Shown: positions 25,160-46,451 of the stretch, piece by piece
How positions within the stretch are numbered: the first letter of the stretch is position 1
How the letters are laid out: each line of letters starts with the position of its first letter
Assembly: GCA_964506635.1 (NCBI GenBank)
Contig: CAZDMI010000001.1
Location: 1-53,800 of the forward strand
Source of the DNA: an uncultured Thermotogae bacterium
Lineage (GTDB): Bacteria > Bipolaricaulota > Bipolaricaulia > M55B111
Direction of reading: 5' to 3'
Length of the DNA: 53,800 nt
Program-made: the position numbers and the translations under genes
Notes under the pieces: model-generated
Seen by the model: only the letters and a program-made list of their open reading frames with translations
Told to the model about the DNA's origin: nothing
Databases searched by the model: none

Positions 25160-25172
25160 GGTCTCAACTCCT

Positions 25173-26144: not shown

Positions 26145-26162
26145 CTTCCCCCTTGAAGGATC

Positions 26163-27575: not shown

Positions 27576-27583
27576 TTTATCAC

Positions 27584-28645
27584 CTAACGCATCGCCTGGG
27601 AACTACCGACTTCTACCCGCGGGTCGAGTAGACCGTAAAGCAGATCCGCCACCAGGTAACCAAAGATGTATAATGCGGAGGTAATGAACATCACGCCCAT
27701 GACCACGGGTATATCGTTCTGCATGATCGCTATTCTAGTCAATAAGCCGATTCCCGGCCAATTGAATATAACCTCGGTAATCATCGCCCCACCGATAGAC
27801 ATAAGCAGCGAAAGTAGCGCCGAGGTTATAACCGGTGGCGCCGCGGTCCGAAGGGTATGGCCGTAAATAACCTTTCGTTCCGGTACCCCTTTAGCCCTAG
27901 CCGCCATTATGTAGTCGTCCTGCAGTACGTCGGTAACGATATTTCGCGTTACCCAGGCCCTGGCACCGAAGATGTTGAAGACGATCGTTGCCAGCGGCAG
28001 GGCCAACCTGTAAAGAACGCCGAAGTAGTAATCCAGCCCCGAAGTCTGAGGTAGAGGCATGGCAGTCGAAGGAAACCAGCCAAGCTGATATGCAAAAACC
28101 AGGATTGCTAGCATACCAAGCCACCACATGGGCATGCTGGAGGAAGTCATGCCAAAAATCGACAGAAACCTGTCCAGTTTACCCCCGGCAACCTGAGCCG
28201 CCTTTAAACCAACTACAAGCCCCAAAAAGACGTAAATAACCGCCGCGGTCGTAAACAAAAGTATTGTCCGGGGCAACCGAGACATAATTATGTCCATTAC
28301 CTGCCTGCTCCCCCCGGGTGCAGTCATCATAAAGGACTGGCCGAAGTTGAGCGTCATCTTGTCCCATGCATCCGTGAATATCCGCTTCCAGACGGGCTCG
28401 TCCAGACCTCTCCTCTCCCTCAGCTTCGATATTTCGTTTTCCCGCCACTCTTGAAGCTCTTCATCGGATAGTTGCTGTAATTCAGGGTTGTTGCGAACCT
28501 GAGCAGTTACCGACTGACGGATTCTAGTCTGCATCTGCTCCTCCGACACGCTGTTAAACAGGGCGGAAAGGATGAGTATTACTATACCCAAGGTGATCAG
28601 GGCCTGAAAAGTCCTGGAAACGAGGTACTTCAACCGAGCTGGCAT
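27584..28645 (-). CDS. Opp/Dpp-type ABC permease (OppB-like)
   Basis: 353-aa polytopic protein with the typical DYIMAARAKGVPERKVIYGHTLR EAA-loop region. GGGGGGT SD. Confidence 0.9.
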   Translation of the reverse strand: MPARLKYLVSRTFQALITLGIVILILSALFNSVSEEQMQTRIRQSVTAQVRNNPELQQLSDEELQEWRENEISKLRERRGLDEPVWKRIFTDAWDKMTLNFGQSFMMTAPGGSRQVMDIIMSRLPRTILLFTTAAVIYVFLGLVVGLKAAQVAGGKLDRFLSIFGMTSSSMPMWWLGMLAILVFAYQLGWFPSTAMPLPQTSGLDYYFGVLYRLALPLATIVFNIFGARAWVTRNIVTDVLQDDYIMAARAKGVPERKVIYGHTLRTAAPPVITSALLSLLMSIGGAMITEVIFNWPGIGLLTRIAIMQNDIPVVMGVMFITSALYIFGYLVADLLYGLLDPRVEVGSSQAMR

Positions 28646-29011
28646 TTCTTTACCCCCCTGGCGAAAACGGGTTTATCGAACAAAACCATCAAAAAGATCC
28701 TCTTAATGTAGTTCCTTTCATTACCTTCTATTATACCATCTATTATAAAACCCTCAGGACTTTACTAACCCTCTTACTTTCCTTCAGCGGGCGGATCAAA
28801 CCACCACCGAAGGACCTCTCCCCGAGCAACTATAAAATGAAAATAAGTCAGAGAAAAGAAAAATTCAAACAAATTAGAGCTTTTTATCGTATTCATTTCA
28901 ATCTTTCATCCTCTTTCCCGGTTCCCGAAAGCTACTTTTTTACTCAACGTTCTCAATCAAGATTCAACCTATCCGGTCCAGCATCGACCAGCAAAAGGAA
29001 TTCTCGGTCCT

Positions 29012-29060
29012 GATGAAAAAGAAAAGCCAGGGCAAAGGGCTCGTAACCCTCTACCCTGGC
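29012..29060 (-). terminator. Intrinsic (probably partial) terminator between the binding-protein gene and the permease genes
   Basis: Minus-sense GCCAGGG...CCCTGGC stem (29060-29026) with an inner AGGG/CCCT extension, followed by TTTTCTTTTTCA. Confidence 0.7.
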
Positions 29061-29104
29061 GAAAAATTTCGACTGATTCTATTCGTATTAATTGCCTCGA
29101 GCAG

Positions 29105-32988: not shown

Positions 32989-34788
32989 TTAAGTCTTTTT
33001 TAGGTAATTTTTCTCCAAAAAACTTTTTAAATTCCGCTCAACCTCGCCCAGCCAATTACCTATTACCCTGTTAAGGGAAAGTGAAAGGGAGTTATTGCCT
33101 CCAAGGGGAGTTGTCAGATGCCAAACTCTTCTAAACTTATCAGCACCGTATTCTTCAAGAAGGTAGCCCACAAAAGCTCCGGCCTCAGAAAGTTTTACAG
33201 CTTCTGCCCCCTCAGCAAAGACCGTTCCCTCCAGAGAGTTCCAATCTCCTTCTGCAAGTATTTCACCGGCCATAGACAAAACTTCCTGGTTTGACAGGTA
33301 ATGCTCCAGACCGTTCCGTAAAAGACCCGAATAAGTCGGGGTTTTTGAGACCCTGTCGACCACGAACTCCGAAACTTCTCCTACCAGGGTTTCAGTTTCA
33401 GTTCCCCAAATGACCGTCTCCGGGGTTTCCAACTCCCTCCAGAGCTTTACCCGGTCGGAGTCGTGCAGCAAAAATATCTTTACCCTCCCCACTTCCTCGC
33501 TTAGCCAGGGAAAGGCATCGCTGGTTCTCTCTAAGACCGAGGAAAGGGATTTCGACGAACCGGTTTTCCTTCCAACCCTTTCTGTAAAAAATACGGGTAC
33601 ACCCCCCAACTTTACTCGCATAATCGGGCCAAATTTGCGGATTAACTTGAGGTATGGCGAAACTTTTTCTCCAATAACCGAACCCTGCTCGGAAGAGATG
33701 GTCTTCTTAAAGTGTTTTTTTGCCCGTTCCCATTCACCCTGGAAGAAATTAATCTTACCCTTTAAAACCTCAACTTTCTCTTCTAACTCCTTTTTTACTT
33801 CTCCTTCAATATTCCGCAAAGGTTTATCAGCGCTCGATAATCTCCCCTGACCGAACAGAAAACGAGCACGATAGTAATAATAGTCCCTGGATTTCCCCGC
33901 GATGGATTCTACGAAATCGTTCCACTTATCATCCATAGCCTGCAGCGAGACTCCAAGGGATTCAGCAACACCTCCCCTGAAACTATTCGCTTTCCATACT
34001 GACCTGACCTCCGGAACACCGTACTTTTCGAGCAGGAAGGAAACAAACGAAGCTGATTCCAGTTGAACTATTTCCTGATATGGTTTCGGACCTCCCTCCG
34101 ACCGGATCAATGACGAAAACAGGGAAAGACTCATACCGGCAGGAGCGTCCGGTGCGTCGAAGTAATCATATATCTTTTCCTGGGCCGTGATCGGTATCCT
34201 ATCAGTATTTTCCAGTTTCGAGACTTCCGAGAGGGTGAAACGGTTCTCCTTCAGGGGGGCAGTTCTCACGTGGGGGTGTTCAAATTGATCAGTCAAATTA
34301 GCCTGAAGCCCCTTTCGGAGGAATTCGGATGAAGGCGGACCCCAGGAAAATAGAGTCAGGGCACGGACCAGAAGTATTTCAACGTTTGAGCCGTAAACCA
34401 GATCAATCGTCACCAGAGGAGCACCTGCCCCTGACGAACTTTTCCTGCGGGCTATCGTTGATTTAAGCGCATTCAAGTCTTTATGAAGGTAAACGTGAAC
34501 CCGGTCCGGAACTCCGCCGTCCAAATTCAGCCTCTTTTCTATCTTTTTTCGGTAGCTAGTTACTTTGGTCAGATAATTTTTCGGTTCCAGTTCCTGCAGG
34601 TCTTTTTCCAGGTAGTGAACGGCGGCCAAATCGTTCCTATCGACCTTCCAATCCGGTCCGGAATTACCAAGGTAAGAGGGTACTAGATAAAAAATCGAGA
34701 CACCAGCGAGCCCAATCGCCAGGAAGAAAAAAGTTAGAACGATCGAAACCCGCCGAAGTGTCCCATGTCCGTTTTCTTTTATGCTCAT
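32989..34788 (-). CDS. Membrane-anchored protein with two degenerate peptidase-MA-like modules
   Basis: N-terminal TM (IVLTFFFLAIGLAGVSIFYLV). There are two internally similar modules ending SFVSFLLEKYGVPEVRSVW and AFVGYLLEEYGADKFRRVW. No HExxH motif anywhere in the protein. It is the last gene of the Opp-type cluster 2. Confidence 0.65.
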   Translation of the reverse strand: MSIKENGHGTLRRVSIVLTFFFLAIGLAGVSIFYLVPSYLGNSGPDWKVDRNDLAAVHYLEKDLQELEPKNYLTKVTSYRKKIEKRLNLDGGVPDRVHVYLHKDLNALKSTIARRKSSSGAGAPLVTIDLVYGSNVEILLVRALTLFSWGPPSSEFLRKGLQANLTDQFEHPHVRTAPLKENRFTLSEVSKLENTDRIPITAQEKIYDYFDAPDAPAGMSLSLFSSLIRSEGGPKPYQEIVQLESASFVSFLLEKYGVPEVRSVWKANSFRGGVAESLGVSLQAMDDKWNDFVESIAGKSRDYYYYRARFLFGQGRLSSADKPLRNIEGEVKKELEEKVEVLKGKINFFQGEWERAKKHFKKTISSEQGSVIGEKVSPYLKLIRKFGPIMRVKLGGVPVFFTERVGRKTGSSKSLSSVLERTSDAFPWLSEEVGRVKIFLLHDSDRVKLWRELETPETVIWGTETETLVGEVSEFVVDRVSKTPTYSGLLRNGLEHYLSNQEVLSMAGEILAEGDWNSLEGTVFAEGAEAVKLSEAGAFVGYLLEEYGADKFRRVWHLTTPLGGNNSLSLSLNRVIGNWLGEVERNLKSFLEKNYLKKT

Positions 34789-34810: not shown

Positions 34811-35950
34811 TTACTCTTGAACGGTGGCAAACGGATCAGCTGCGTCTCTCAAGGCATCGCCGACGAAATTCATCGCAAGTACCGCAACTATAATGAACCC
34901 ACCGGGAATTAATAACCAGGGATAAGAAGTGAGGGATTGGACGTTATTTGCTTGGCTCAACAATAATCCCCAGCTGGTCTGGGGTTCCTGAATACCTAAT
35001 CCAAGGAAACTAAGGCTGGCCTCCCCCAAGATCATTCCAGGAATTGTCAGGGTTGAACTTATAATTAGATAGGAAACCGTATTCGGAAGGATATGCCGGA
35101 ACATAACTCGCCAGTTACTTCCGCCAGCAGCTCTGGCAGCCATGGTATAGTCTTCCTCCCTAGCTGAGAGAACTAGCCCCCTCAGGGTACGAGCTGGAGT
35201 GGTCCAGTCTACAAAGGAAAACACCGCAACAATGAAAAAGAACCGCAACGATGAAGGAACACTTTGGAATATCATAGCCAGGGAAAGCCACAGCGGAAGT
35301 TTCGGAAAAGCCATTATTACTTCGATTATCCTCTGGGTAATCATATCCACTACTCCACCGAAAAAACCCGAAATTAAACCTATTGGGATGGCAATGATCA
35401 AAGTAGTAATTAAAGCAAATGGCCCGATTGCTAGAGAAACCCACCCGCCCCAGAGCGTCCGGGTAAACATGTCCCTACCGAATTTGTCGGTGCCAAATAG
35501 AAAGACCGGTGCTTCGGGTTCACCCGTGCCGAATAAGTGGATTCGTGATTCGAATAACCCCCAGAAGCTATACTTTTCCCCTTTGACGAAGAGCTTTACA
35601 GGATACTTTTCCCCATCTTCGTCCCGTGTAAAAACCTTTTTGAAGTTTTCGTTGAACTCGGACTCCAGTTTGTAAACGTAGGGCCAGGTTAATCCTTCTT
35701 CGTCGAAAAAGTGTACCTTCGTCGGGGGGGCGTGAGAGTAATCCCTGTGCTGTTCTTTATAATCGTATGGGCCGATGAAATTGGCACCAAATACAATCAA
35801 GGCAAGAACAAGAATTACTACACCACCAACCCTGCCAGCCGTGTGGCGTTTAAACCGCCGCCACATCCTTGCCCACTGTGATTCTTCCTCTTCCTCCTCG
35901 ACTTCGAGTTCTAGCTCGGACTGTTCAGTCACCTCGTCCTCCTCAGTCAT
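34811..35950 (-). CDS. Opp/Dpp-type ABC permease (OppC-like) with an acidic N-terminal extension
   Basis: ATG at 35950 with GAGGA SD, overlapping the upstream stop (ATGACTGA). BPD_transp_1 core with the EEDYTMAARAAGGSNWRVMFRHILP loop. Confidence 0.9.
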   Translation of the reverse strand: MTEEDEVTEQSELELEVEEEEEESQWARMWRRFKRHTAGRVGGVVILVLALIVFGANFIGPYDYKEQHRDYSHAPPTKVHFFDEEGLTWPYVYKLESEFNENFKKVFTRDEDGEKYPVKLFVKGEKYSFWGLFESRIHLFGTGEPEAPVFLFGTDKFGRDMFTRTLWGGWVSLAIGPFALITTLIIAIPIGLISGFFGGVVDMITQRIIEVIMAFPKLPLWLSLAMIFQSVPSSLRFFFIVAVFSFVDWTTPARTLRGLVLSAREEDYTMAARAAGGSNWRVMFRHILPNTVSYLIISSTLTIPGMILGEASLSFLGLGIQEPQTSWGLLLSQANNVQSLTSYPWLLIPGGFIIVAVLAMNFVGDALRDAADPFATVQE

Positions 35951-36947
35951 AGCGAATCCTCGGGTCGTTCCAGGCAAGTAAGAAATCCGCAACAAGGTTA
36001 CCAAAGAGCAACATCAACGCGAAAAACGTCAGTCCAACCATTATGACCTGCTCGTCCTGCTGGTTAAGTGCCATCCAGTAAGCTCTTTCAACCGTAGGTA
36101 TCCCGAGAACGATTGCAGTAATCAAAGCCCCCGAAACGAGCCGGCGAAAAGAATAGCCAAAACCAGTAATCAGCGGGTTTATAGCGTTCCGGAAAACGTG
36201 TTTGTAAACTACAGAACGGTGGCTCAACCCCTTTGACTCTGCAGTCTGGGCAAACTGCCTGTTGAGGAATTCGAGCATCTGACCGCGCATCAGCCTTACC
36301 ACTCCCGCCATAGAAGCCGTCCCGACTGCGATCACGTAAGGCCAGACGTGCCAGAAAAAGTTTCCGATCTTTCCCCAGTTGGGCATAAATCCATTAAACC
36401 ACGGGGCCGAAATGTACTTTTGAATAAATAAACCCCCAATTCCAAGGTTCGGCCCGACCTGGAAAACGGCAGCTAGTAAATAAAGCAAAACCAGGGCCAG
36501 GAAAAAGTTGGGAACCGAGAGCCCTATAAAGGATAGTAGCGTAAAAAAGTGATCCGATGATTCGTACTGGTGAACTGCTGAATAAATCCCAATGGGAATA
36601 CTCAAGGCATAGGTAAAAAACAGGGTTAAAATTCCCAGGAAGATCGTATAGCCGATCCTGCCTTCAAACAAAACCACCGAAACCGGAGCGTAATTTGCGA
36701 AGGAAAAGCCGAGCTGACCCTTTGTTACCACGTTCTTCACCCACTTCCAGTAACGCACGTAAACGGGGTCGTCCAGACCCAGCCTTTCCTTTTGCTTCTT
36801 GATCATCTCCCTGCTGATGGTCGGATCAAACTTATGCTTTGTCAAATAGTTACCCGGAATCATCTGAACTATCCCGAAGGAGATGATCGATATCAAAATT
36901 ATGGTCGGGATCATGTAAAGAACCCGGCGTATCATATAAGAAAGCAT
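35943..36947 (-). CDS. Opp/Dpp-type ABC permease (OppB-like)
   Basis: Typical N-terminus MLSYMIRRVLYMIPTIILISIISFGIVQ and EAA region QFAQTAESKGLSHRSVVYKHVFRNA. Confidence 0.9.
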   Translation of the reverse strand: MLSYMIRRVLYMIPTIILISIISFGIVQMIPGNYLTKHKFDPTISREMIKKQKERLGLDDPVYVRYWKWVKNVVTKGQLGFSFANYAPVSVVLFEGRIGYTIFLGILTLFFTYALSIPIGIYSAVHQYESSDHFFTLLSFIGLSVPNFFLALVLLYLLAAVFQVGPNLGIGGLFIQKYISAPWFNGFMPNWGKIGNFFWHVWPYVIAVGTASMAGVVRLMRGQMLEFLNRQFAQTAESKGLSHRSVVYKHVFRNAINPLITGFGYSFRRLVSGALITAIVLGIPTVERAYWMALNQQDEQVIMVGLTFFALMLLFGNLVADFLLAWNDPRIRYD

Positions 36948-36955
36948 AGTGAAAT

Positions 36956-36985
36956 CCGGGACGAGGTAATCACTCCTCGCCCCGG
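36956..36985 (-). promoter_or_regulatory. Intercistronic hairpin between the binding-protein and permease genes of cluster 2
   Basis: 11-bp stem (one G-U) with an 8-nt loop: minus-sense CCGGGGCGAGG (36985-36975) / CCTCGTCCCGG (36966-36956). It ends 8 nt before the permease ATG. Confidence 0.55.
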
Positions 36986-37013
36986 GTAAACTTCACCTCA
37001 GTTTATAAAACTT

Positions 37014-38804
37014 CTACTTCTTCCACCAGATATATTCTGCGTGCCCCAGAGTGGAGCCAAGCGGGCTATAGGTTTCGGTATTCTGAAGCTTGTTTTCGGC
37101 AGCGTAGAGGTAGACTTCACCCGCCGTATAAATAACTGGTACCTGTTCGGATGCAATCATCTGGAACTCGTTGTAATACTTCTTCCGGTTTTCGTAACCG
37201 ACGTGTTTTAAGCCTTCGTTGAATAGCTCCGTGACCCTTTTCTCCCATTCAGATGGATTCTTGGATGCGTTCAGGTGCCACATATGTAATGAACCGCTGC
37301 TCGACCATACGTTCTTGGCGCTATTAGGTTCGATTGGGTCCCCGACCAAACCAACTATGACCGATTCGTACTTGCCGCCCAGCAGCTTTTGAACCATGGG
37401 GTTGAAGCTTATTGGATTCAGATTTGCATCGACACCGATTTTCTTGAAGTCCGTTGAAACTATGTTTCCAACGTCAACTCGACGGGTAGCTCCTTTGTTA
37501 GTCATTAGTTCGAAGGAAAGATCCTTTCCGTCTGGCAGTTCCCTAGTTCCGTCGTCATCCGTGTCTTTAAGTCCGAGTTCGTCCAGCATCTTTCTAGCTT
37601 TTTCCAGGTTGAATTCTTTAGGATACGCTTCTTTCGCTTTGGAATTATAGTAAGGGGAGAGCTGTGATATTGGACTGACCTGAGCTATAGCAAGCCCATT
37701 GTATATATTATCGATAATATCTTGCCTGTTTACGGCATGAGACATCGCCCGCCGGAACTTCTTGTTCCTGAATACTTTAGCCAGTGCTTCACTTGAAGTA
37801 TCCCAGTTGAAGGCAATAAAGTCAGTACCCGCAGGAGCTCCCGTTGAGGGTTTCTGGTTGATTTTTACGTTCCAGTTCTCCTTATCCTCATTTCGTAAGA
37901 GATACGGAATATCCTCGGCCCTGGCAGCAAGGACGTCAAGCTCGTGGTTCTTAAATTTGAGCATCTGTACGTCGGTATTCTTTACCTTGAGGAAGATAAG
38001 CTCGTCGAGGTAGGGAAGCTGCGTCCCTTCCGGATCCCTTTTATAGTAGTATGGGTTCCGCTTCAATACTATTTGTTGTGCGGGGGCAAAGTTCTTGACC
38101 ATAAAGGGGCCAGCACCAATTATCTTTTCCGGATTGTTGGCAGCTACCTGTTTCCCCCAGGCGCTATTGAATTCCTCGCCGTCAAAATTAGGAAAGGCAT
38201 GTCGTGGGTAGATCGGCGTATAACCAATTTGCCGAACAAAAGGTCCAAAAACAGTTGGTGTGGTAAACTGAACTGTGTATTTGTCAATCTTCTTAATAGA
38301 TGGAAGTTTGCCTTCCACTTTTAGAATGCTTCGGGCATCCGCGGAAACTTTTTCGTTAAATATTATTTTCTTAAAAGTGAATACGACGTCTTCGGCAGTA
38401 AGTGGTTTTCCATCGTTAAACTTGACACCCTTTCTGAGGTGGAAAGTATACGTCTTCTTGTCCTCGGAAATTTCCCAGTCCTTAGCTATTGCCGGAACGG
38501 TTTTTCCGGTAGCGGGCGAGGTATCGGTCAACCCAGCCCCCATGATCATGTCCGTAACGTCGGTGGAAGACGTTTCCTGGGCAACTGCGTGGTTGAAAGT
38601 TTTAGGAAGACTTATACTTGCCAGAGTGACTGAACCGCCCTTCTTGCCCGAAGAGAGTGGCCCCATACCCCAGGTAGCGTTTTTATTGCCAATAGGTACA
38701 ACCATCGGCTCCTCAACTTCGTGACCTGAAGCCAGACCAACCAATCCAGCACCCGTAACTAGTAGTGCCAGAGCAATGAACAAAACTGTACTTTTTCTAA
38801 CCAT
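37014..38804 (-). CDS. Family-5 (Opp/Dpp-type) substrate-binding protein
   Basis: ATG at 38804 with GGGAGGT SD; the ORF track extends it to 38831. Signal peptide ends ...GLVGLASGHEVEE (no lipobox). SBP_bac_5-like core. Confidence 0.9.
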   Translation of the reverse strand: MVRKSTVLFIALALLVTGAGLVGLASGHEVEEPMVVPIGNKNATWGMGPLSSGKKGGSVTLASISLPKTFNHAVAQETSSTDVTDMIMGAGLTDTSPATGKTVPAIAKDWEISEDKKTYTFHLRKGVKFNDGKPLTAEDVVFTFKKIIFNEKVSADARSILKVEGKLPSIKKIDKYTVQFTTPTVFGPFVRQIGYTPIYPRHAFPNFDGEEFNSAWGKQVAANNPEKIIGAGPFMVKNFAPAQQIVLKRNPYYYKRDPEGTQLPYLDELIFLKVKNTDVQMLKFKNHELDVLAARAEDIPYLLRNEDKENWNVKINQKPSTGAPAGTDFIAFNWDTSSEALAKVFRNKKFRRAMSHAVNRQDIIDNIYNGLAIAQVSPISQLSPYYNSKAKEAYPKEFNLEKARKMLDELGLKDTDDDGTRELPDGKDLSFELMTNKGATRRVDVGNIVSTDFKKIGVDANLNPISFNPMVQKLLGGKYESVIVGLVGDPIEPNSAKNVWSSSGSLHMWHLNASKNPSEWEKRVTELFNEGLKHVGYENRKKYYNEFQMIASEQVPVIYTAGEVYLYAAENKLQNTETYSPLGSTLGHAEYIWWKK

Positions 38805-38827
38805 TTTTATACCTCCCTGAATCAAAG

Positions 38828-39793
38828 TCAATTTGCAAGCCTATTTGCCAGCGCCCTGACGACAGCAAGCTTATATCCCTCAGAGGAGCTTTTCGTAGCT
38901 AAAGCCGCCATATCCATTAAATCTTCCTCGGTTTTATCCGAAGAAATAAGTGTTTCTGCCAGTCCTTCACCGGCTCCCTGTCTTACTGCCTTGGTACTAC
39001 CGTTTTTGGCCAGAGTGGTCAATTTCTCAAGCTTCAGGTTCTCCGCAGCTAGCTTGCCAAAAGCGAGACCGGCAGCTTTCCTTTCTCCCGGGGTCAGTTC
39101 CTTGTCTTTCGCCATTTTCTGGAGCTCCTTGAACTTCATGCTGGGAGAAAGAGGACTACTGTAAAGAACTGATAGAGCCTCGTAAGCAGCTTCTTCTATC
39201 ATCGAGTACTCAGCTTCCTTGATCATGCTTTTTAACTCTTCTGCCGACTTCTCGTTCGGGTATATCGATGCCAGTGCTTCAGTAACTGCAATTTGCAGGC
39301 CGGAAAACTCTACTTTATCCGTTACCACGAACCGCAAAGCCTCCAGGTCCTCGGTACTGTAGCCCTTGACTCCGTTGAGGTTGAAGGAAGTAAAGAAGGT
39401 AGCCAGAGCTTTTCCGGCCGCCTCTTTGATTGCGTCGGTTTCTCCGGAGACGGCTTTCTTTCTTACTTCTTTTGCCTTTTCCTGGGCTTTTTCTCTGGTA
39501 TTGATATTGGAAACGTCACCATACTTCTCAACCAGTGCCGGTACTGCGGCTTTTCTCAGACCGGCCCTGTCGCCTTTTGCTATCGATTCAAGTTTTTTCA
39601 GACTGAGATCGGACTTTACGTACACTTCGGCCAGTGCCTCCACGGCGGCTTCCTGTACCAGACCGGGCACGGCTTCGGAAGTAGCAAGAGATTCTAGTTC
39701 AGCCCGTGGTCGTGCCACGGTGGCGAAAGTAAACCCAACCAGCAGTACTAATGCAAGCGAGATAACGGATAGCTGCTTTAAATTCGGTTTCAT
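38828..39793 (-). CDS. Secreted HEAT-like alpha-helical repeat protein (321 aa), paralog A
   Basis: GGAGGT SD and signal peptide MKPNLKQLSVISLALVLLVGFTFATVA. Recurring modules of about 30 aa (AAVEALAEVY, AAVPALVEKY, EAAGKALATFF, AVTEALASIY, EAAYEALSVLY, RKAAGLAFGKLA, AVVRALANRL). Confidence 0.75.
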   Translation of the reverse strand: MKPNLKQLSVISLALVLLVGFTFATVARPRAELESLATSEAVPGLVQEAAVEALAEVYVKSDLSLKKLESIAKGDRAGLRKAAVPALVEKYGDVSNINTREKAQEKAKEVRKKAVSGETDAIKEAAGKALATFFTSFNLNGVKGYSTEDLEALRFVVTDKVEFSGLQIAVTEALASIYPNEKSAEELKSMIKEAEYSMIEEAAYEALSVLYSSPLSPSMKFKELQKMAKDKELTPGERKAAGLAFGKLAAENLKLEKLTTLAKNGSTKAVRQGAGEGLAETLISSDKTEEDLMDMAALATKSSSEGYKLAVVRALANRLAN

Positions 39794-39805
39794 TTAGTAC
39801 CTCCT
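39330..39805 (-). repeat. Copy 1 of a 476-bp perfect direct repeat (SD plus signal peptide plus the first ~155 codons of the HEAT-repeat gene)
   Basis: Reads identical base for base to 41074-41549 (offset 1,744 bp). This is corroborated by the identical translations of ORFs 39366..39797 and 41110..41541 and by the identical N-termini of both genes. Confidence 0.95.
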
Positions 39806-40013
39806 TTAGTAAATTAGCTATTGAAACGAAAACAGACTAAAAATTCGCCCAAGAGGTCGATACCTCCAGCCTTTCATTACCACCTCCAGGATTAACATCT
39901 CCAACTTGGGAATTTATAACCAAGTTCGGCCTACTTCTCAATCAAGACAATTTCGAACTCAAAATCATTTGTTTTGCCCAGCAAACAGTATTAATCACGC
40001 TAGTGAACGATAT

Positions 40014-41537
40014 TTACTGATTCACTTGGTAGACCACGTGGATCTTTATTTTGCCCTTGTTCGTTAACCCGCCTTCATCTTTCACCGTATAACTAGTAGA
40101 GAAATCACCAAGCCGAAGGTTTGACGTATAAATCGCACGTCCGGTGGTCTCATCCACTTCAAGCCTTCCCTCGGAAGGCTGACCGAAGGAAGTAACCGTC
40201 ATTTTTTGCCCTTCAACGTCGCTATCATTTGCAAACAGGTAAAAGCTGGTTGAAAGCGACTCCGCAATATTTAAAGTCACTTCGTCGTTTTTTACAGTTG
40301 GTGGGTCGTTCACCTGTTTAATTTGCAAATTCACCTTAACTTCCGAGCTCAAAGCTCCGTCCGTAACTTCGTACAGAAAGAGATCTTTTCCAGCGTAATT
40401 ACCCTCCGGCTCGTAATGAAAAGAACCGTCTTCATTGAGAGTTAGGGCCCCATGCTCGGGATTTTCCAGCAAGTTCGCCACTAACTCATCTCCATCCGGG
40501 TCCCAATCATTGGCCAGCACGCCGGGCGCTTTTACTCCCAGCTCGGAATCCTCCTTTAAAACGTATTCGTCCGGAACGCCTTCAGGTGGCCTCTCAAGTT
40601 TATGGGCAAGCCCTCCACGCAAACCGTAACTTAAGCTCTCGCTGCGCTGTTTCAGGTCCTCGTAAATTTGAAGCACTTCAGTCTCCGTCCTATCCGATTC
40701 TATAATTTGCCTTTTTAATGCTATTCCAGCCCCTTTTGCCAGCTGGATATGAGACGAACGTGTAAGTGTCAATAACTCTTCGAGCTTTACTTTTTTGACA
40801 GCCATTTTACCGAACGCCAGTGCTGCCGCCCGTCGCATCCAGGATCCTCTCTGTTGACTTTTTGCCAGTGATTTAATCTTCTTTAAATCAGTATTCCCGT
40901 CGTTGACGTAGTGTAAAGCAAGCCCTTCTAAAGCCGTAATTCTTTTTAACTTGTTCTCCGAGCCGGTCAATAGCTGCTCGAGTTCTCCCCGGCTTAACTT
41001 ATGAAAAAAGATACTGGAAAACCCTTCTACCTTTACCTGCAGGTTACTAAAATCTATTTCATCAGTTAAGAGAAACCGCAAAGCCTCCAGGTCCTCGGTA
41101 CTGTAGCCCTTGACTCCGTTGAGGTTGAAGGAAGTAAAGAAGGTAGCCAGAGCTTTTCCGGCCGCCTCTTTGATTGCGTCGGTTTCTCCGGAGACGGCTT
41201 TCTTTCTTACTTCTTTTGCCTTTTCCTGGGCTTTTTCTCTGGTATTGATATTGGAAACGTCACCATACTTCTCAACCAGTGCCGGTACTGCGGCTTTTCT
41301 CAGACCGGCCCTGTCGCCTTTTGCTATCGATTCAAGTTTTTTCAGACTGAGATCGGACTTTACGTACACTTCGGCCAGTGCCTCCACGGCGGCTTCCTGT
41401 ACCAGACCGGGCACGGCTTCGGAAGTAGCAAGAGATTCTAGTTCAGCCCGTGGTCGTGCCACGGTGGCGAAAGTAAACCCAACCAGCAGTACTAATGCAA
41501 GCGAGATAACGGATAGCTGCTTTAAATTCGGTTTCAT
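40014..41537 (-). CDS. Secreted HEAT-like repeat protein with two C-terminal cadherin/VCBS-like Ig domains (507 aa), paralog B
   Basis: The first ~155 aa are identical to paralog A, the middle is diverged but homologous, and the C-terminus carries VLANDWDPDGDEL... and LFANDSDVEGQKM... modules typical of bacterial cadherin-like repeats. Confidence 0.75.
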   Translation of the reverse strand: MKPNLKQLSVISLALVLLVGFTFATVARPRAELESLATSEAVPGLVQEAAVEALAEVYVKSDLSLKKLESIAKGDRAGLRKAAVPALVEKYGDVSNINTREKAQEKAKEVRKKAVSGETDAIKEAAGKALATFFTSFNLNGVKGYSTEDLEALRFLLTDEIDFSNLQVKVEGFSSIFFHKLSRGELEQLLTGSENKLKRITALEGLALHYVNDGNTDLKKIKSLAKSQQRGSWMRRAAALAFGKMAVKKVKLEELLTLTRSSHIQLAKGAGIALKRQIIESDRTETEVLQIYEDLKQRSESLSYGLRGGLAHKLERPPEGVPDEYVLKEDSELGVKAPGVLANDWDPDGDELVANLLENPEHGALTLNEDGSFHYEPEGNYAGKDLFLYEVTDGALSSEVKVNLQIKQVNDPPTVKNDEVTLNIAESLSTSFYLFANDSDVEGQKMTVTSFGQPSEGRLEVDETTGRAIYTSNLRLGDFSTSYTVKDEGGLTNKGKIKIHVVYQVNQ

Positions 41538-41549
41538 TTAGTACCTCCT
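41074..41549 (-). repeat. Copy 2 of the 476-bp perfect direct repeat
   Basis: See copy 1. The sequences diverge immediately outside both boundaries. Confidence 0.95.
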
Positions 41550-41808
41550 GTAGAGGCAACAGTATATTTAAATCTCCTCGTTCGCGCAGGTAGAAGGTTA
41601 ATATGTAACCCAGATTAAAAACCCAACTACGAATTTACAGAACAATTTACAATCGTTAGTGCTCCCGGATGAAGAAACAAATAACGTCAGATTTTATTAT
41701 CGCAAAATTTATTCATTTTTCAACATAAAAGGCACAATTGAAAAGTGCAAAACCGCCTAAAAGTTCCACCACAACAAACCGCTGATAATGACTGACCGAC
41801 TTTGGGGT

Positions 41809-41840
41809 AAAAAGGAGAAAAAAACAAAGACTTTCTCCCC
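41809..41840 (-). terminator. Possible terminator after tatC (second copy)
   Basis: Minus-sense GGAGAAA (41839-41833) / TTTCTCC (41821-41815), followed by TTTT. Weak, AT-rich. Confidence 0.35.
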
Positions 41841-41890
41841 CAGGAACCACTTAGCATCAGTACCTTTCAATCAAGTAAGTAAGGCTACTT

Positions 41891-42598
41891 CTATTCTCTT
41901 TCCCGATATAAAAAGCCAACGGCGTGAATAGAGACCTCATAAAGTATTATCAATGGAATAGCCATAAAGGCCTGAGAAAATAAATCAGTGGGCGTAATAA
42001 AAGCCGCGGTGGTGAAGGCAATAATGATTACGTACTTCCTGTTTGCCCTGAGAGTTTCGACTTCGACAAAACCGAGGCGGACCATGAGATAAATAAGTAG
42101 CGGCAGTTCAAATATCAGACCCATTGCGAAAGAAAGGAGGGAGGAAAAGGTTATATAATTACGGACGGTGAAACTGGATACGAGGTTTTCCCCTCCCACT
42201 CCGGACAGAAACCTAACCGTATAGGGAATTCCGACCAAGACCGCAAGTCCGATCCCGACATAAAAAAGAACTCCTCCCAGCAAGAAACCAAACCGGAACA
42301 GCCTTGCCTCGTCCTCCAACAGGGCCGGGACGATAAACTTCCACATCTGATATAGCAACCACGGTGTCGATAGGATTATCCCCGTTATAACCGCAAGCTT
42401 GAGGTAGGTTAAAAAAGCTTCCGTGGGATGAAGGTAAATTAAGGATTCTTCGTTAGAGGCCCTGAGAAGTAGTCCCAGGAGCTCAGTTCTAAAATAATAC
42501 GCAGCTCCAGCCAGTAGAACGATCGCACCCAGGGAGCTGATTACCCTGCTCCTCAACTCCTCGAGATGCTCCCCGAGCGGACGTTCTTGGTCTTTCAT
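41891..42598 (-). CDS. tatC: Twin-arginine translocase subunit TatC (copy 2)
   Basis: HLEELRSRVI N-terminus, six predicted TM segments, TatC-typical PTEAF and FITPTD segments. Confidence 0.9.
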   Translation of the reverse strand: MKDQERPLGEHLEELRSRVISSLGAIVLLAGAAYYFRTELLGLLLRASNEESLIYLHPTEAFLTYLKLAVITGIILSTPWLLYQMWKFIVPALLEDEARLFRFGFLLGGVLFYVGIGLAVLVGIPYTVRFLSGVGGENLVSSFTVRNYITFSSLLSFAMGLIFELPLLIYLMVRLGFVEVETLRANRKYVIIIAFTTAAFITPTDLFSQAFMAIPLIILYEVSIHAVGFLYRERE

Positions 42599-42617
42599 TC
42601 AGGTACTATAATCCTCA

Positions 42618-42887
42618 TTAACTCTGAGGTTCTTCCTCGTCGTCGGCCTCTTCTTCAGTAGACTTATCTCCGGAGCTTCGGTCGGACTTTCCGCCCCCGG
42701 TTTCCGTATCCACGTCAATTGCATCCTGAGTCTCTTCGTACTGTTCCTGAATTTTTTCCTTTTCCTTATTGAATTCTCGTACGCCCTTGCCGAGCGACCG
42801 AGCCAGTTCGGGGAGCTTGTCCCCGCCAAATATCACGAGGATGATCACCAAAATGATTATTAACTCAGTCGGTCCCAGTCCAAACAT
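42618..42887 (-). CDS. tatA: Twin-arginine translocase subunit TatA/E with an acidic tail
   Basis: MFGLGPTELIIILVIILVIFGGDKLPELARSLGKGVREF. GGAGGTG SD. Confidence 0.9.
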   Translation of the reverse strand: MFGLGPTELIIILVIILVIFGGDKLPELARSLGKGVREFNKEKEKIQEQYEETQDAIDVDTETGGGKSDRSSGDKSTEEEADDEEEPQS

Positions 42888-42966
42888 AGTACTTTAACAC
42901 CTCCGAACTTCCGTGATCAAATCTTAACCCATCAGACGGCAAAATGTAATACCCGGGCTGACTGTA

Positions 42967-43680
42967 TTAATCGGGCTCAGCTATTCCGGCAAGTACTATC
43001 GATAAACCGTAAAGTACCAGCAGAGGGCCCCACAAAAACATCTGTGTAATGGGGTCCGGTGGTGTCAGTACGGCTGCCAGAATCGCAGCCCCTACAAGCG
43101 CTATTCTCCACTGGCTGGTTAAAGTTTTCCGCCTTATAATGTTTAACTTCGCTAGTCCGTATGAGATTACCGGCATTTCAAAGAGGAAACCAAATATTAG
43201 GGTAAATGCCATCACAAAAGAAGCGTAATTACCCACTGTAAAAGTCGGGTCTAAACTCTCGCCACTTATGCCCCTGAGGAAATCAAGCGCAAACGGTAAT
43301 ACTCCCAGCAGGGCAAACCCGGCCCCCACGTAAAAGAAAAAGCTTCCAAACACAAATAACCCGAACGTGAAACCCCGCCCGAAACGATCGCTCTTGCTTA
43401 AAAAAGGCGAAACGATCTGAATTAGCTGATAAAGTAAATAGGGAGCGCTCAACAGGACCCCTACGAACAGCGATAACTTAATGTAGGTAAAGAAGGCCTC
43501 CGTCGGATGGATAAAAATTAGCTCTTTTTCCACCAGCGGCCGCTGCAGGAACTGGAGGACCCTGTCCCTGAAAACGTACGCGAGGATAGCGAAAGCGACA
43601 ATTAAAATAAAACTCCTGATAAGCCGCCCGCGAAGGTCCTCGGTCCTTTCCAGTAAATCCTGTATAACGCTATCAGACAC
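42967..43680 (-). CDS. tatC: Twin-arginine translocase subunit TatC (copy 1)
   Basis: DLRGRLIRS N-terminus, PTEAF, LTPPDP, six TM segments. GTG start with no visible SD, so the start is uncertain. Confidence 0.85.
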   Translation of the reverse strand: MSDSVIQDLLERTEDLRGRLIRSFILIVAFAILAYVFRDRVLQFLQRPLVEKELIFIHPTEAFFTYIKLSLFVGVLLSAPYLLYQLIQIVSPFLSKSDRFGRGFTFGLFVFGSFFFYVGAGFALLGVLPFALDFLRGISGESLDPTFTVGNYASFVMAFTLIFGFLFEMPVISYGLAKLNIIRRKTLTSQWRIALVGAAILAAVLTPPDPITQMFLWGPLLVLYGLSIVLAGIAEPD

Positions 43681-43724
43681 TGTATTTAAAAGTTACTAAA
43701 ACCAATTTATTGAAAAGTTAGCGG

Positions 43725-44012
43725 TCAATCTTCCATCTGCTCTTCTAGTTCGTCCTTGTCCATATCCAGAGCTTCCGCCACTTCTTCCGTTCCGACGTCT
43801 TCTTCTACCTGCTCCGCCAGATCCATAAGCGCTTGCTTATTTACCTGCTCGTCCAGCCACCTGTCTACCTCGGACTTCCTGATCTTGGTCTGACCGTTTA
43901 GCTCCATTGCGTCCAATTCGCCCTTATCAATTAAATCTTTGACGGCGTCGGCTTTCAAACCGGTATATTTGGCAACGTCCGATACCTTCAAATACGCTTC
44001 AACTTTGCTCAT
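43725..44012 (-). CDS. Small helix-turn-helix (excisionase/MerR-like HTH_17-type) DNA-binding protein with an acidic tail
   Basis: YLKVSDVAKYTGLKADAVKDLIDKGEL...IRKSEVDRWL. AGGTGA SD. Confidence 0.7.
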   Translation of the reverse strand: MSKVEAYLKVSDVAKYTGLKADAVKDLIDKGELDAMELNGQTKIRKSEVDRWLDEQVNKQALMDLAEQVEEDVGTEEVAEALDMDKDELEEQMED

Positions 44013-44087
44013 TATATCACCTAAACCTATCTACTGTTGGTAAATGTCTCGTAAAGCTTACCGGAAAGGTCACGGTTTTTAATGGGG

Positions 44088-45512
44088 TCAGGAGTTAACG
44101 CTCCAGTTGGTCCCTCCTTCCTGGTCTTTGATTTCTATCCCCATCCCTTTCAATTCGGATCTGATCTTATCGGCAAGCTCCCACTGCTCCTCCTCCCTGA
44201 GGTCGTTCCTGACATCCAGCAATAGCTTCAGTAGTCCTTCCTCGAGACCTTTGAGTCGATTTTCTCCCTTGCCCTGAAATAGTCCAAGTGGGCGGGAAAG
44301 CTCTCTGACCTTAGCTGCTGCCCCCTCTAGCAAGAACAGGTCCTCTTCTGGACCGTCGTCCCGGAATTTATTACCCCTCTTGACCAGGTCGAAGATTACC
44401 CCAAGACCGCCGGGGGTATTGAAGTCCTTATCCATTTCTTCCATAAAGCGGTCATCCGCCGATTCCAGGTAATTCTGGAACTCCTTCCCGCGTTCAGTGC
44501 TGACGGAACCTTCACCCTCGGAGCTTTCAATTCCCTCGACTGCTTCAAAGAAATCGTATACCTTTTTCACCGCACTGTCGGCGTCATCGAGGTTCTTTTT
44601 GCTGAAGTTCAATGGTTTGCGATAATGGGTGGAAAAGTAGAAGTAGCGTACGGTCTCACTGTCAAATTGCTCCAGGACGTCCCGCGCGTACTCGAAATTG
44701 CCCAGGGACTTCGACATCTTCTCACCCTCGAACCGTAGAAGCCCATTATGTAACCAGTAACGCGCAAACTGTTTTCCCGTCCGCGCCTCGGACTGCGCGA
44801 TTTCGTTCTCGTGATGAGGGAAAATGAGGTCCTGGCCGCCTGCGTGAATATCGATAGTATCGCCGAGAGTACCCTGAGCCATGACGGAACACTCTATATG
44901 CCACCCCGGACGGCCTTCTCCCCAGGGACTCTCCCAGCTCGGTTCACCGGGCTTGGAACTCTTCCACAGAGCAAAATCCAGCGGATCTTCCTTCTTGACG
45001 TTTACCTCTACCCGGGATCCACTTTCCAGGTCATCCACCGAACGACCCGAGAGCTTGCCATAATCCTCGAATTCCCTGACCCGAAAATATACGTCCCCTT
45101 CGACCTCGTAACCATAACCCCTATCAATCAGTGCACTGACGTGATCTATTATTTCATCGACGTATTCCGTCACGCGGGGGCGGTAGTCGGCTTCTTTTAT
45201 TCCCAGTCGCTCCAGGTCTTCAAAGTAGGCCTCCGCGTACTTTTTTGCCAGTTTGTCGGGTTCCATACCTTCTTCGTCCGCTCTATCTATGATCTTATCG
45301 TCGAGATCGGTCACGTTCTGGGTGAATTCGACTTCGTATCCTTTGAACTCCAGGTAACGTCTCAGACCATCGAACACTATAAAAGGCCTTGCGTTGCCTA
45401 TGTGAAAGTAATCGTAGACGGTGGGACCACAGCTATAAAATCTGACCTTTCCTTCTTCCAGGGGGTCGAATTCCTCGGTTTCTCCGGTCAAAGTATTATA
45501 AAGCTTAAGCAT
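44088..45512 (-). CDS. cysS: Cysteine--tRNA ligase
   Basis: HIGN (HIGH) motif in YFHIGNARP, KMSKS motif in GEKMSKSLGN, and the Zn ligand context CGPTVYD. Confidence 0.95.
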   Translation of the reverse strand: MLKLYNTLTGETEEFDPLEEGKVRFYSCGPTVYDYFHIGNARPFIVFDGLRRYLEFKGYEVEFTQNVTDLDDKIIDRADEEGMEPDKLAKKYAEAYFEDLERLGIKEADYRPRVTEYVDEIIDHVSALIDRGYGYEVEGDVYFRVREFEDYGKLSGRSVDDLESGSRVEVNVKKEDPLDFALWKSSKPGEPSWESPWGEGRPGWHIECSVMAQGTLGDTIDIHAGGQDLIFPHHENEIAQSEARTGKQFARYWLHNGLLRFEGEKMSKSLGNFEYARDVLEQFDSETVRYFYFSTHYRKPLNFSKKNLDDADSAVKKVYDFFEAVEGIESSEGEGSVSTERGKEFQNYLESADDRFMEEMDKDFNTPGGLGVIFDLVKRGNKFRDDGPEEDLFLLEGAAAKVRELSRPLGLFQGKGENRLKGLEEGLLKLLLDVRNDLREEEQWELADKIRSELKGMGIEIKDQEGGTNWSVNS

Positions 45513-45680
45513 GCTTTAACACCTTCCCTGAAAAAATGGGGCTTAAAATTCGGGGATGACGGTCTAGAGGAAATCTTCACGAAATAAATTTTTAAACTTT
45601 TTCCAGCGCCACTTCTGCCACCGTATTCAACCAAATTGGCTGCTACTATGTAAACGAACTTAATTCATAAACGCTAAGAC

Positions 45681-45709
45681 AGTATAAGCAAGGGTCTTGC
45701 CGATGACAA
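45681..45709 (-). promoter_or_regulatory. Sigma70-like promoter of cysS
   Basis: Minus-sense TTGTCA (45709-45704), 17-nt spacer, TATACT (45686-45681). This implies a leader of about 160 nt. Confidence 0.45.
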
Positions 45710-45902
45710 GCAGGGACACCTAAGGTAAATTGTCTATGGAAACTGGTAAAAGTACGGCTAATTGCTTATACATACACCGTCTTGAATCAGTATCCAAGTA
45801 CGTCCAAAGTTAGAAATAGAGGAACCCAGGCGTACCTGAAAACCGCAAAAGTAAAACGACAAAGAGAGCCAGTAATAAATTTAACCCGGAGGTACCTCAA
45901 CA

Positions 45903-46451
45903 ATGAGCAGGAAAAACCTCCCAAACTTTCTGACGCTGTTCAGGATAATTGCCGTTCCTTTCGTGATTTTCCTTCTCCTGATCGGCAACTACCTGGCCGC
46001 ACTGGCGCTTTTTTCTTTTGCTTCGATAACGGACTTCGTGGACGGATACATGGCCCGAAAGCATGGCCAGATCAGCCCTTTTGGCAAGTTTGCCGATCCG
46101 ATTGCCGACAAATTGCTTGTGGCAGGGGTTCTCGTGACTTTTATTCAGCTGGACGCCGTAACTGCAGTTCCAGTGGTGGTTATAATTGCCCGTGGTTTCC
46201 TGGTTACCGGAATCAGGCTACTGGGTACCACGGAAGAAGAAGTGATTTCGGCAAGCTGGATGGGGAAGGTAAAAACAGTTTCACATATAACCCTGATAGT
46301 TGTAATAACGTTAAATCTGGAATTAGGTTTTAGTTGGCTGGATACAACAGTAAATCCGTTGATTTACCTGGCCATGGCAACTGCCCTGATTTCGGGGGTT
46401 GACTATCTTTATCAGAATAAAGAGTTAATCAGAAAAAGTTTCCGTAACTAA
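45903..46451 (+). CDS. pgsA: CDP-diacylglycerol--glycerol-3-phosphate 3-phosphatidyltransferase
   Basis: CDP-alcohol phosphotransferase motif DFVDGYMARKHGQISPFGKFADPIADK. GGAGGT SD. Confidence 0.9.
   Translation: MSRKNLPNFLTLFRIIAVPFVIFLLLIGNYLAALALFSFASITDFVDGYMARKHGQISPFGKFADPIADKLLVAGVLVTFIQLDAVTAVPVVVIIARGFLVTGIRLLGTTEEEVISASWMGKVKTVSHITLIVVITLNLELGFSWLDTTVNPLIYLAMATALISGVDYLYQNKELIRKSFRN

Follow-up and report, generated by a model that had tools for sequence, protein, structure and literature searches.

Probable recurrent gene conversion between the 5' parts of two tandem genes for HEAT-like proteins in an uncultured member of the Bipolaricaulota

Results

Two tandem genes with an identical 5' part

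The window analysed in this study is a complete 53.8-kb metagenomic contig (CAZDMI010000001.1; 53,800 nt) of an uncultured bacterium placed in the Bipolaricaulota. Its minus strand carries two tandem genes for putatively secreted HEAT-like proteins, paralog B (40014-41537; 507 amino acids) and, downstream of it, paralog A (38828-39793; 321 amino acids), whose 5' parts, referred to below as the heads, are identical. The heads form an exact direct repeat of 476 nt (minus strand; copy 1 of B at 41074-41549, copy 2 of A at 39330-39805), the longest exact run at the offset of 1,744 nt that separates the copies. It is impossible that such a repeat arose by chance. The coordinates and the offset listed in a first-pass annotation of the window were reproduced exactly.

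Each copy begins 12 nt 5' of the start codon and comprises an AGGAGG Shine-Dalgarno (SD) sequence, the ATG and 154 codons plus 2 nt, including the part encoding a signal-peptide-like N-terminus. The first 155 residues of the two proteins, through ...EDLEALRF, are identical, and the homogenised part amounts to the first 48% of A and 30% of B. The open reading frame (ORF) map thus agrees with the earlier description of a repeat spanning the SD, the start codon, the signal peptide (here read from the sequence) and about 155 codons of both genes. The only other long repeat in the whole contig is a 71%-identical stretch shared by two paralogous genes for ABC (ATP-binding cassette) ATPases.

At the 5' edge one mismatch is followed by three matches, so that homology stops 16 nt before the ATG; beyond this point the regions preceding A and B match at chance level (5-11 of 30 positions), which bears out the view that the sequences upstream of the SD are unrelated. 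On the 3' side about 36 nt are partly similar (39294-39329, approximately 65%) and matching then falls to chance level, nucleotide identity past the repeat being 44-46%. The proteins nevertheless remain alignable (BLASTP E = 3e-131 overall), with amino acid identities of 33% (codons 156-249) and 31% (codons 250-319), and the bodies are indeed, as had been judged by eye, well under half identical. The profile of synonymous divergence called for by the first-pass annotation displays the same step: the Nei-Gojobori proportion of synonymous differences (pS) between A and B is 0 for codons 1-150, and it then rises at the repeat edge to saturation (0.6-1.25).

The non-coding regions preceding the two genes are distinct. 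The region unique to the upstream side of B (U_B; 41538-41890, minus strand) contains, according to a consensus scan alone, a terminator-like hairpin following tatC (41841-41814) and a promoter-like site (41723-41696; TTGAAA-16-TG-GATAAT). The 220-nt intergenic region between B and A (region I; 39794-40013, minus strand) is unrelated to U_B save for its last 12-16 nt, which hold the SD. The scan of region I revealed no strong promoter or terminator consensus, its predicted RNA fold was no stabler than those of shuffled sequences (z = -0.65), and an Rfam search of positions 38000-46000 found no RNA family.

Features of the encoded proteins

Protein A has a signal-peptide-like N-terminus followed by an all-alpha HEAT-like solenoid. 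Its match to the Pfam family HEAT_2 (PF13646; E = 1.2e-08) scores 35.6 bits against a gathering cut-off of 27.7, whereas that of B is borderline (27.7 against 27.7). In the AlphaFold2 (AF2) model, A is a 17-helix alpha-solenoid (mean predicted local distance difference test score, pLDDT, 84; predicted template modelling score, pTM, 0.79) lying behind an N-terminal hydrophobic helix that resembles a Sec signal peptide, with a K-rich n-region, a hydrophobic core and a putative cleavage site (TVA|R). A Foldseek comparison of this model with the PDB returned only generic HEAT/ARM solenoids (PP2A-A, importins, AP2), all with E >1e-3 and TM <0.5. The earlier statement that no function has been assigned to such secreted HEAT-repeat proteins holds in so far as A has no NCBIfam match and is named "hypothetical protein" in GenBank.

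Protein B combines a signal-peptide-like N-terminus and a HEAT-like solenoid (approximately residues 30-315) with two cadherin-like/tandem-95 immunoglobulin (Ig)-like domains (approximately residues 317-507; nt 40014-40589). The Ig domains, predicted in the first-pass annotation as cadherin/VCBS-like, are matched above the cut-offs in both Pfam (Big_9, PF17963, 106 bits, 1.7e-30; Cadherin_4, PF17803, 98.8 bits; Cadherin_5, PF17892, 91.8 bits) and NCBIfam (tand_rpt_95, NF012211, 107 bits against a cut-off of 90); these matches occur in B and not in A. The AF2 model of B (mean pLDDT 65) repeats the helix pattern of A and continues with beta domains at residues 335-502, so the modelling of both proteins that had been proposed yielded an alpha-solenoid in A and a matching pattern plus beta domains in B. 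Both the helix pattern and the residues that are invariant across the family (among them R-x-AA-x-x-AFG and GAG) are retained in B, which is accordingly a functional paralog rather than a decaying copy.

The 3' boundary zone of the repeat (39311-39329, minus strand; A codons 155-161) corresponds to a low-confidence loop between two helical sub-blocks. In the model of A, pLDDT falls below 50 solely in the loop 157-161, which coincides with the 3' edge of the repeat in the window; in B the residues with pLDDT <50 are 135-176, around the junction. The same spot is marked by a 36-nt variable patch in a sister species (see below). The loop at residues of about 150-162 therefore appears to be a hypervariable spot that might be able to block the extension of heteroduplex DNA.

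The pair in other assemblies of the same species

A 6.5-kb contig from another assembly (L001; ENA ERZ23491536) is 99.69% identical to positions 35464-41941 of the window and contains the same tandem pair with the same exact 476-nt repeat. The first-pass annotation had raised the concerns that the pair might be an assembly duplication, or that divergence might prove uniform along its whole length in independent assemblies; L001 independently shows the pair, the same repeat and the same abrupt step. Just one of the 20 single-nucleotide polymorphisms (SNPs) distinguishing L001 from the window falls in the head. It is a synonymous change in codon 83 (GCA in the window, GCG in L001; minus strand, position 41289 and the homologous position 39545 in copy 2) and is present in both copies, although a collapsed node of an assembly graph would look the same.

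The body of B (40014-41073; 1.06 kb) contains nine of these 20 SNPs, which corresponds to 0.85% compared with about 0.2% elsewhere. Seven of the nine lie within 40578-40776, and seven of the nine are synonymous. This excess could reflect a local recombinational import or a relaxed region.

A further contig, the 931-bp L011 (JGI 3300053705), runs from U_B through the whole head into the B body and thus covers both junctions of copy 1. Its B-context head differs from that of the window by a 2-nt deletion (at about position 478, equivalent to 41294-41295 of the window), which cuts the ORF to 87 amino acids (P0014), and by an AAT to AGT change (position 527, equivalent to 41245). The deletion is either an error of a low-coverage contig or a sign of a population carrying B as a pseudogene.

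Together with L002, the contig of a sister species described below, three independent contigs (the window, L001 and L002) contain the tandem pair, and L011 adds a junction fragment. The four junctions in question (U_B-head, head-B body, spacer-head and head-A body) are accounted for most simply by a tandem pair.

A sister species from the Great Salt Lake

The sole match among the GTDB species representatives was L002 (JAGXLB010000002.1), which belongs to the Candidatus Bipolaricaulota metagenome-assembled genome (MAG) GSL_GSL3510_5. This MAG originates from site GSL 3510 (run SRR14023937) and was assembled with metaSPAdes at k <=127 (PMC8506154). The order of genes in L002 is B', A', a family-5 solute-binding protein (SBP), two permeases and a conserved 596-amino-acid protein without a Pfam match. 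B' (607 amino acids; "tandem-95 repeat protein" in GenBank) consists of the HEAT part and three Ig domains, compared with two in the window, and A' (322 amino acids) is a "hypothetical protein".

The repeat shared by A' and B' is longer than that of the window: it extends over 764 nt with one mismatch, from 15 nt 5' of the ATG to the vicinity of codon 250. Identity just past its 3' edge is graded (50/60, 34/60 and 24/60 in consecutive segments), and pS between A' and B' is 0 up to approximately codon 240 and saturated afterwards.

Between the species the heads are as divergent as the other parts of the genes. Those of the window and L002 have 73.5% nucleotide and 77% amino acid identity (about 26% of nucleotides differ), which is about the same as for the rest of A, and pS between orthologs is 0.5-0.95 throughout (0.54-0.80 in the head). 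Because the heads are identical within each genome and saturated between the species, their identity results neither from sequence constraint nor from a duplication that took place after the species had split. Within-genome identity coupled with divergence between species is best described as concerted evolution. Antisense ORFs lie over the heads (39366-39797 and 41110-41541); selection acting on the head at the nucleotide level, through these ORFs or an RNA element, was ruled out on the grounds that its synonymous sites are saturated between the species.

Outside the heads, the tails of A from the two species share 63% identity, against 31-41% for other pairings. The solenoid tails of B are 30-31% identical, and thus no closer to each other than to anything else; their Ig domains are colinear and 43-44% identical. 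Local alignment of U_B and region I with their counterparts in L002 gave scores equal to those of shuffled controls, and these regions were of no aid in establishing orthology. A search with the B' body and Ig domains recovered only B' itself and generic tandem-95/VCBS proteins; it yielded neither additional B orthologs nor fragments of B' from other runs. The solenoid body of B used alone gave no match, a result limited by the word index, as even the known near-identical protein P0003 was missed.

B' also contains a 50-nt exact repeat (L002 9165-9214 and 9444-9493; 279 nt, or 93 codons, apart) located between adjacent tandem-95 domains. The repeat points to a recent domain duplication or to conversion within the gene.

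A contig resembling a deletion product

Recombination between the heads had been predicted to delete the B body and place the A body behind the promoter of B. The sister species provides one candidate for such a product, the 1,299-bp Logan contig L003 (run SRR14023866), in which the region upstream of B' is followed by the head, the A' body and the start of the SBP gene. This run represents another Great Salt Lake site, CB2, and a read set different from that of L002 (PMC8506154). The first 94 nt of L003 agree fully with the unique sequence preceding B', and at the single position where B' and A' of L002 differ it carries the A' base. Such a topology matches the product predicted if the two repeats recombine, with a return to the single-gene layout taken as ancestral. 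Logan contigs, however, derive from a k=31 graph without pair information, in which tip-clipping at low coverage could drop both competing branches. L003 is short and probably of low coverage, and the chances that it is a real deletion recombinant are roughly even; it is suggestive of the predicted product without being decisive.

L003 and L002 are distinguished by a 36-nt patch with 21 differences (L003 559-594; L002 8381-8416 and 10390-10425), where the amino acid sequences are DLETLELVVSDKVEF versus ELEAIGPITSAEGEF; the rest is identical. The CB2 allele is A-like (31/42 nt identical to A of the window), and the GSL3510 allele, present in both copies of the MAG, resembles neither A nor B of the window. 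The patch falls exactly in the loop where the repeat of the window ends. It could represent a mini-conversion tract derived from an old B', an import from another strain, or two copy-specific alleles collapsed by the assembler.

The protein family and its ancestral state

A word-index search of 5.8 billion proteins identified four clusters of the HEAT family, and an exhaustive hidden Markov model search of 1.84 billion representatives approximately 10 full-length clusters (at 50% identity) of 316-326 amino acids. Scans of JGI metagenomes with the family alignments returned nothing new, or just a contig that was already known. An SBP_bac_5 gene adjoins the HEAT gene in every locus recovered. 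In the distant relatives (L005-7 from JGI, ENA and Logan, L008-9, L010, L012-14 and L015) there is a single A-type gene of about 320 codons directly upstream of SBP_bac_5, and in some of them the stop codon of the HEAT gene and the start codon of the SBP gene overlap. The comparison of synteny suggested in the first-pass annotation therefore gives B-A-SBP in L002 and a single HEAT gene with the SBP in distant relatives.

The proteins resemble HEAT_2 (PF13646) and PBS-lyase-type bacterial HEAT proteins in their Pfam scores, at or above the gathering cut-off, and in their alpha-solenoid models. Unlike these, they have no specific structural relative and constitute a putatively secreted family of about 320 amino acids defined by its position upstream of SBP_bac_5.

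Since the distant relatives possess a single A-type gene upstream of the SBP gene, the A type coupled to the SBP would be the ancestral form. In L012 the genes TatC-TatA-TatC stand directly upstream of the single HEAT gene, as they do before B in the window, and U_B is probably the ancestral upstream region. B would have arisen by duplication, acquiring Ig domains and, in addition, a new 220-nt spacer; its body is as distant from A as are the most distant members of the family (19-32% identity). The head looks A-type: the divergence of copy 2 from orthologs (P0002, P0004) is like that of the A body, with identities to the distant ortholog of 48, 47 and 46% for head, middle and tail, respectively.

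Discussion

Gene conversion between the tandem copies

The directly observed repeat, the step in synonymous divergence (dS), the cross-species pattern and the synteny point, with a probability that we put at about 0.8, to recurrent gene conversion of the RecA type between direct copies in tandem, its reciprocal outcome being an occasional deletion. Recent gene conversion of the head had been proposed in the first-pass annotation, and it is supported by the dS step, the SNP of L001 found in both copies, the pair in L002 and the single gene of distant relatives.

The mechanism that we infer is as follows. A and B would be old tandem paralogs in the chromosome of hypersaline Bipolaricaulota, B being the upstream duplicate with a solenoid body about 30% identical to that of A. 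Homologous recombination between the direct copies would repeatedly and non-reciprocally overwrite the 5' module of one gene with that of the other. The SD, the start codon, the signal peptide and the first block of the solenoid would thus remain identical in each genome and drift between species. The net direction of conversion was most likely from A to B, because the divergence of the head from A-type orthologs parallels that of the A body.

The limits of the converted tract could be explained by the same process. The 5' limit, at -15/-16 in both species despite the complete turnover of synonymous sites, would mark where the ancestral duplication ended, since conversion cannot proceed once homology is lost. 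The 3' limit would lie where divergence halts the extension of heteroduplex DNA: a stretch that remains outside conversion diverges further and may become a permanent barrier, which would create an abrupt step, at the variable loop (codon 155) in the window and at about codon 250 in the sister species. A reciprocal or single-strand-annealing outcome of the recombination would delete the B body and leave A under the B promoter.

Alternative explanations

A single recent replacement in each lineage, that is, a partial duplication or unequal crossover that pasted the A head onto B with no ongoing conversion, would also fit the absence of differences in 476 nt and the one difference in 764 nt. We regard this as unlikely. 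It requires two independent and very recent events sharing a 5' edge in two species, and the strain SNP present in both copies implies further conversion after the split of the window and L001. Moreover, the gradual decay of 3' identity in L002 suggests older tracts with other end points, which are to be expected if conversion recurs. Mechanistically such a replacement would still be gene conversion, and it differs from the recurrent process in tempo only.

The pair might instead constitute a programmed switch, in which the heads serve as recombination sites that choose the body placed behind the B promoter, or silence B, at a contingency locus for surface proteins. The B body is flanked by direct repeats, has a strain SNP density 4-5 times that of its neighbours and varies between the species in the number of Ig domains (two versus three); in addition, a contig of recombinant topology (L003) comes from another Great Salt Lake site, and the failure to recover a B' body fragment elsewhere is weakly in favour of such switching. 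Even so, we consider it highly improbable, and the cassette-like arrangement that had been suggested for the locus was not upheld. Both genes are complete, with their own SD, ATG and full ORF, there are two copies only and no silent cassette, and direct repeats would lead to irreversible deletion, not to reversible switching. No recombinase, invertase or reverse transcriptase is encoded by the 23 larger ORFs of the contig that were scanned with Pfam, all of them located at 15.9-48.4 kb, and the locus contains no significant inverted repeat. The SNPs of the B body are mostly synonymous (7/9), and general homologous recombination accounts for all the observations.

Two types of dedicated variation system were also rejected. 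Cassette-type antigenic or phase variation of the pilE/pilS, vlsE or Mycoplasma vsa kind was discarded, as each of the only two copies has an SD, an ATG, a signal-peptide-like N-terminus and a full ORF, and no dedicated recombinase is encoded by the scanned ORFs (15.9-48.4 kb). A diversity-generating retroelement was discarded because the repeats are identical, with no adenine-specific differences, and no reverse transcriptase is encoded by the scanned ORFs (15.9-48.4 kb).

Least probable of all is an assembly artefact, in which a short-read assembler created the tandem duplication or the identity of the heads through a collapsed or chimeric repeat node: although the window is an entire metagenomic contig, L002 was built at k <=127, below the length of its repeat (PMC8506154), and head variants (the 36-nt patch of L003; the 2-nt deletion and SNP of L011) gave assemblers alleles to choose from, all four junctions are required and the tandem pair is the simplest genome holding them, independent assemblies from three projects and two species contain the arrangement, L002 retains one mismatch between the copies, and a collapse erases differences of a few per cent only, so that the drop from at least about 97% to about 45% nucleotide identity would persist.

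Several points weigh against recurrent gene conversion as formulated above. All the sequences are metagenomic and seemingly derived from short reads (this is confirmed for L002, assembled with metaSPAdes, and for the Logan contigs L003 and L004). De Bruijn assemblers merge near-identical repeats, and both the 100% identity and the SNP seen in both copies could in part be consensus products. The orthology of B and B' rests on architecture (HEAT plus tandem-95), position and colinear Ig domains and not on a clean tree, and there is no cross-species similarity in the intergenic regions. No data set contains an unconverted B head, which leaves the direction of conversion unproven. L003, finally, is just 1.3 kb long and probably of low coverage, and graph clean-up could produce its topology.

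Comparison with known systems

Concerted evolution is familiar from duplicated bacterial genes such as tufA/tufB, where RecA-dependent gene conversion keeps the paralogs identical within each genome while they diverge between species. There, whole genes are homogenised under strong purifying selection; here the process is confined to the head, and the rest of the genes is among the most diverged sequence of the family.

The closest known analogue is the ligA/ligB pair of Leptospira. In this tandem pair, which codes for exported proteins, near-identity extends from -266 to +1890 and gives way to divergence; the literature ascribes this to gene conversion promoted by the arrangement in tandem (PMC7821625). 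The two systems have in common tandem exported paralogs with a homogenised 5' part followed by divergence, and Ig-like domains occur in both. However, the lig block reaches 266 nt upstream and takes in the promoter, so that the genes are co-regulated, whereas the block of A and B starts 12-16 nt upstream and each gene has its own upstream region. The identical part of the lig genes encodes Ig domains, in contrast to the signal peptide and HEAT-like block of A and B, where Ig domains are found in B only. The organism, protein family and ecology are also unrelated.

In Helicobacter pylori, 5' and 3' segments of babA, babB and babC are exchanged by intragenomic homologous recombination, which generates chimeric genes (PMC4552749). 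As in A and B, exported paralogs swap segments and a body is placed behind the 5' region of another gene. Unlike A and B, which are in tandem, the bab loci are dispersed and connected with phase-variable CT repeats and host adaptation, features that neither A nor B displays.

Significance of the locus

The locus adds a further case to a known process, ordinary in mechanism, this time from an uncultured phylum and an uncharacterised family of proteins. It provides a clean natural case, with a dS step, a common 5' edge, differing 3' edges and a candidate deletion product, which makes it useful for studying the limits of conversion tracts. For users of MAGs it is a warning that intragenic repeats of 0.5-0.8 kb are places where short-read assemblies may hide or create variation.

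The analysis also reveals a small unannotated family of putatively secreted HEAT-like solenoids, invariably paired with a family-5 ABC SBP in the Bipolaricaulota. This invariable pairing suggests that the HEAT protein may play an accessory role in substrate capture or in anchoring of the SBP. If the head served both proteins as a docking or anchoring module for the SBP or the transporter, this might be the functional reason why it is identical on two different bodies. As a tentative proposal, possible rather than probable, the HEAT-like protein would be an obligatory accessory partner of the family-5 SBP that has become modular in the halophilic lineage, with a head maintained by conversion, comprising the export signal and the first half of the solenoid and perhaps docking to the SBP, the transporter or the envelope, and with two C-terminal ends, one of them bearing cadherin-like domains for binding polymers or surfaces; recombination would then produce presence or absence of the cadherin version in the population, of which L003 may be an instance.

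Genetic surroundings of the pair

Directly upstream of the HEAT genes lie the genes TatC-TatA-TatC (41891-43680, minus strand), and the same trio precedes the single HEAT gene of L012 (346-2205). A link with the adjacent Tat genes was considered and dropped, as no twin-arginine motif could be read from the sequences of A, B or the SBP; synteny rather than function seems to account for the proximity of the Tat and HEAT genes. A gene for a 95-amino-acid acidic protein with an HTH_17 (excisionase/MerR-like) domain (43725-44012, minus strand) is located between cysS and the first tatC, with no integrase or other mobile-element gene nearby.

Downstream of A lies the gene for the family-5 SBP of the Opp/Dpp/Nik type (37014-38831, minus strand; Pfam SBP_bac_5, 2.5e-88), whose likely start is the ATG at 38804, 23 nt past the stop codon of A. 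Every one of its NCBIfam matches is below the cut-off, and the equivalog scores are far below. It is followed by genes for OppB- and OppC-type permeases (34811-36947, minus strand; Pfam BPD_transp_1, BPD_transp_1_N and OppC_N). The SBP and the two permeases are thus located directly after A without ATPase genes, the nearest of which (24158-26144) are about 9 kb away.

These ATPase genes are part of a second Opp-like cluster (24158-31669, minus strand), which encodes an 854-amino-acid protein with a partial SBP_bac_5 match, two permeases and two oligo_HPY ATPases. The HEAT-SBP cluster and this second cluster may share the ATPases. In L002 the corresponding permease and ATPase genes are situated directly upstream of B', and the two clusters have therefore been rearranged between the species.

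The gene following the OppC-type permease (32989-34788, minus strand) encodes a 599-amino-acid protein with an N-terminal transmembrane helix and no Pfam or NCBIfam match. Its counterpart in L002 (14962-16752; 596 amino acids) occupies the same position and is 42% identical, and the cluster may include this protein as another uncharacterised member.

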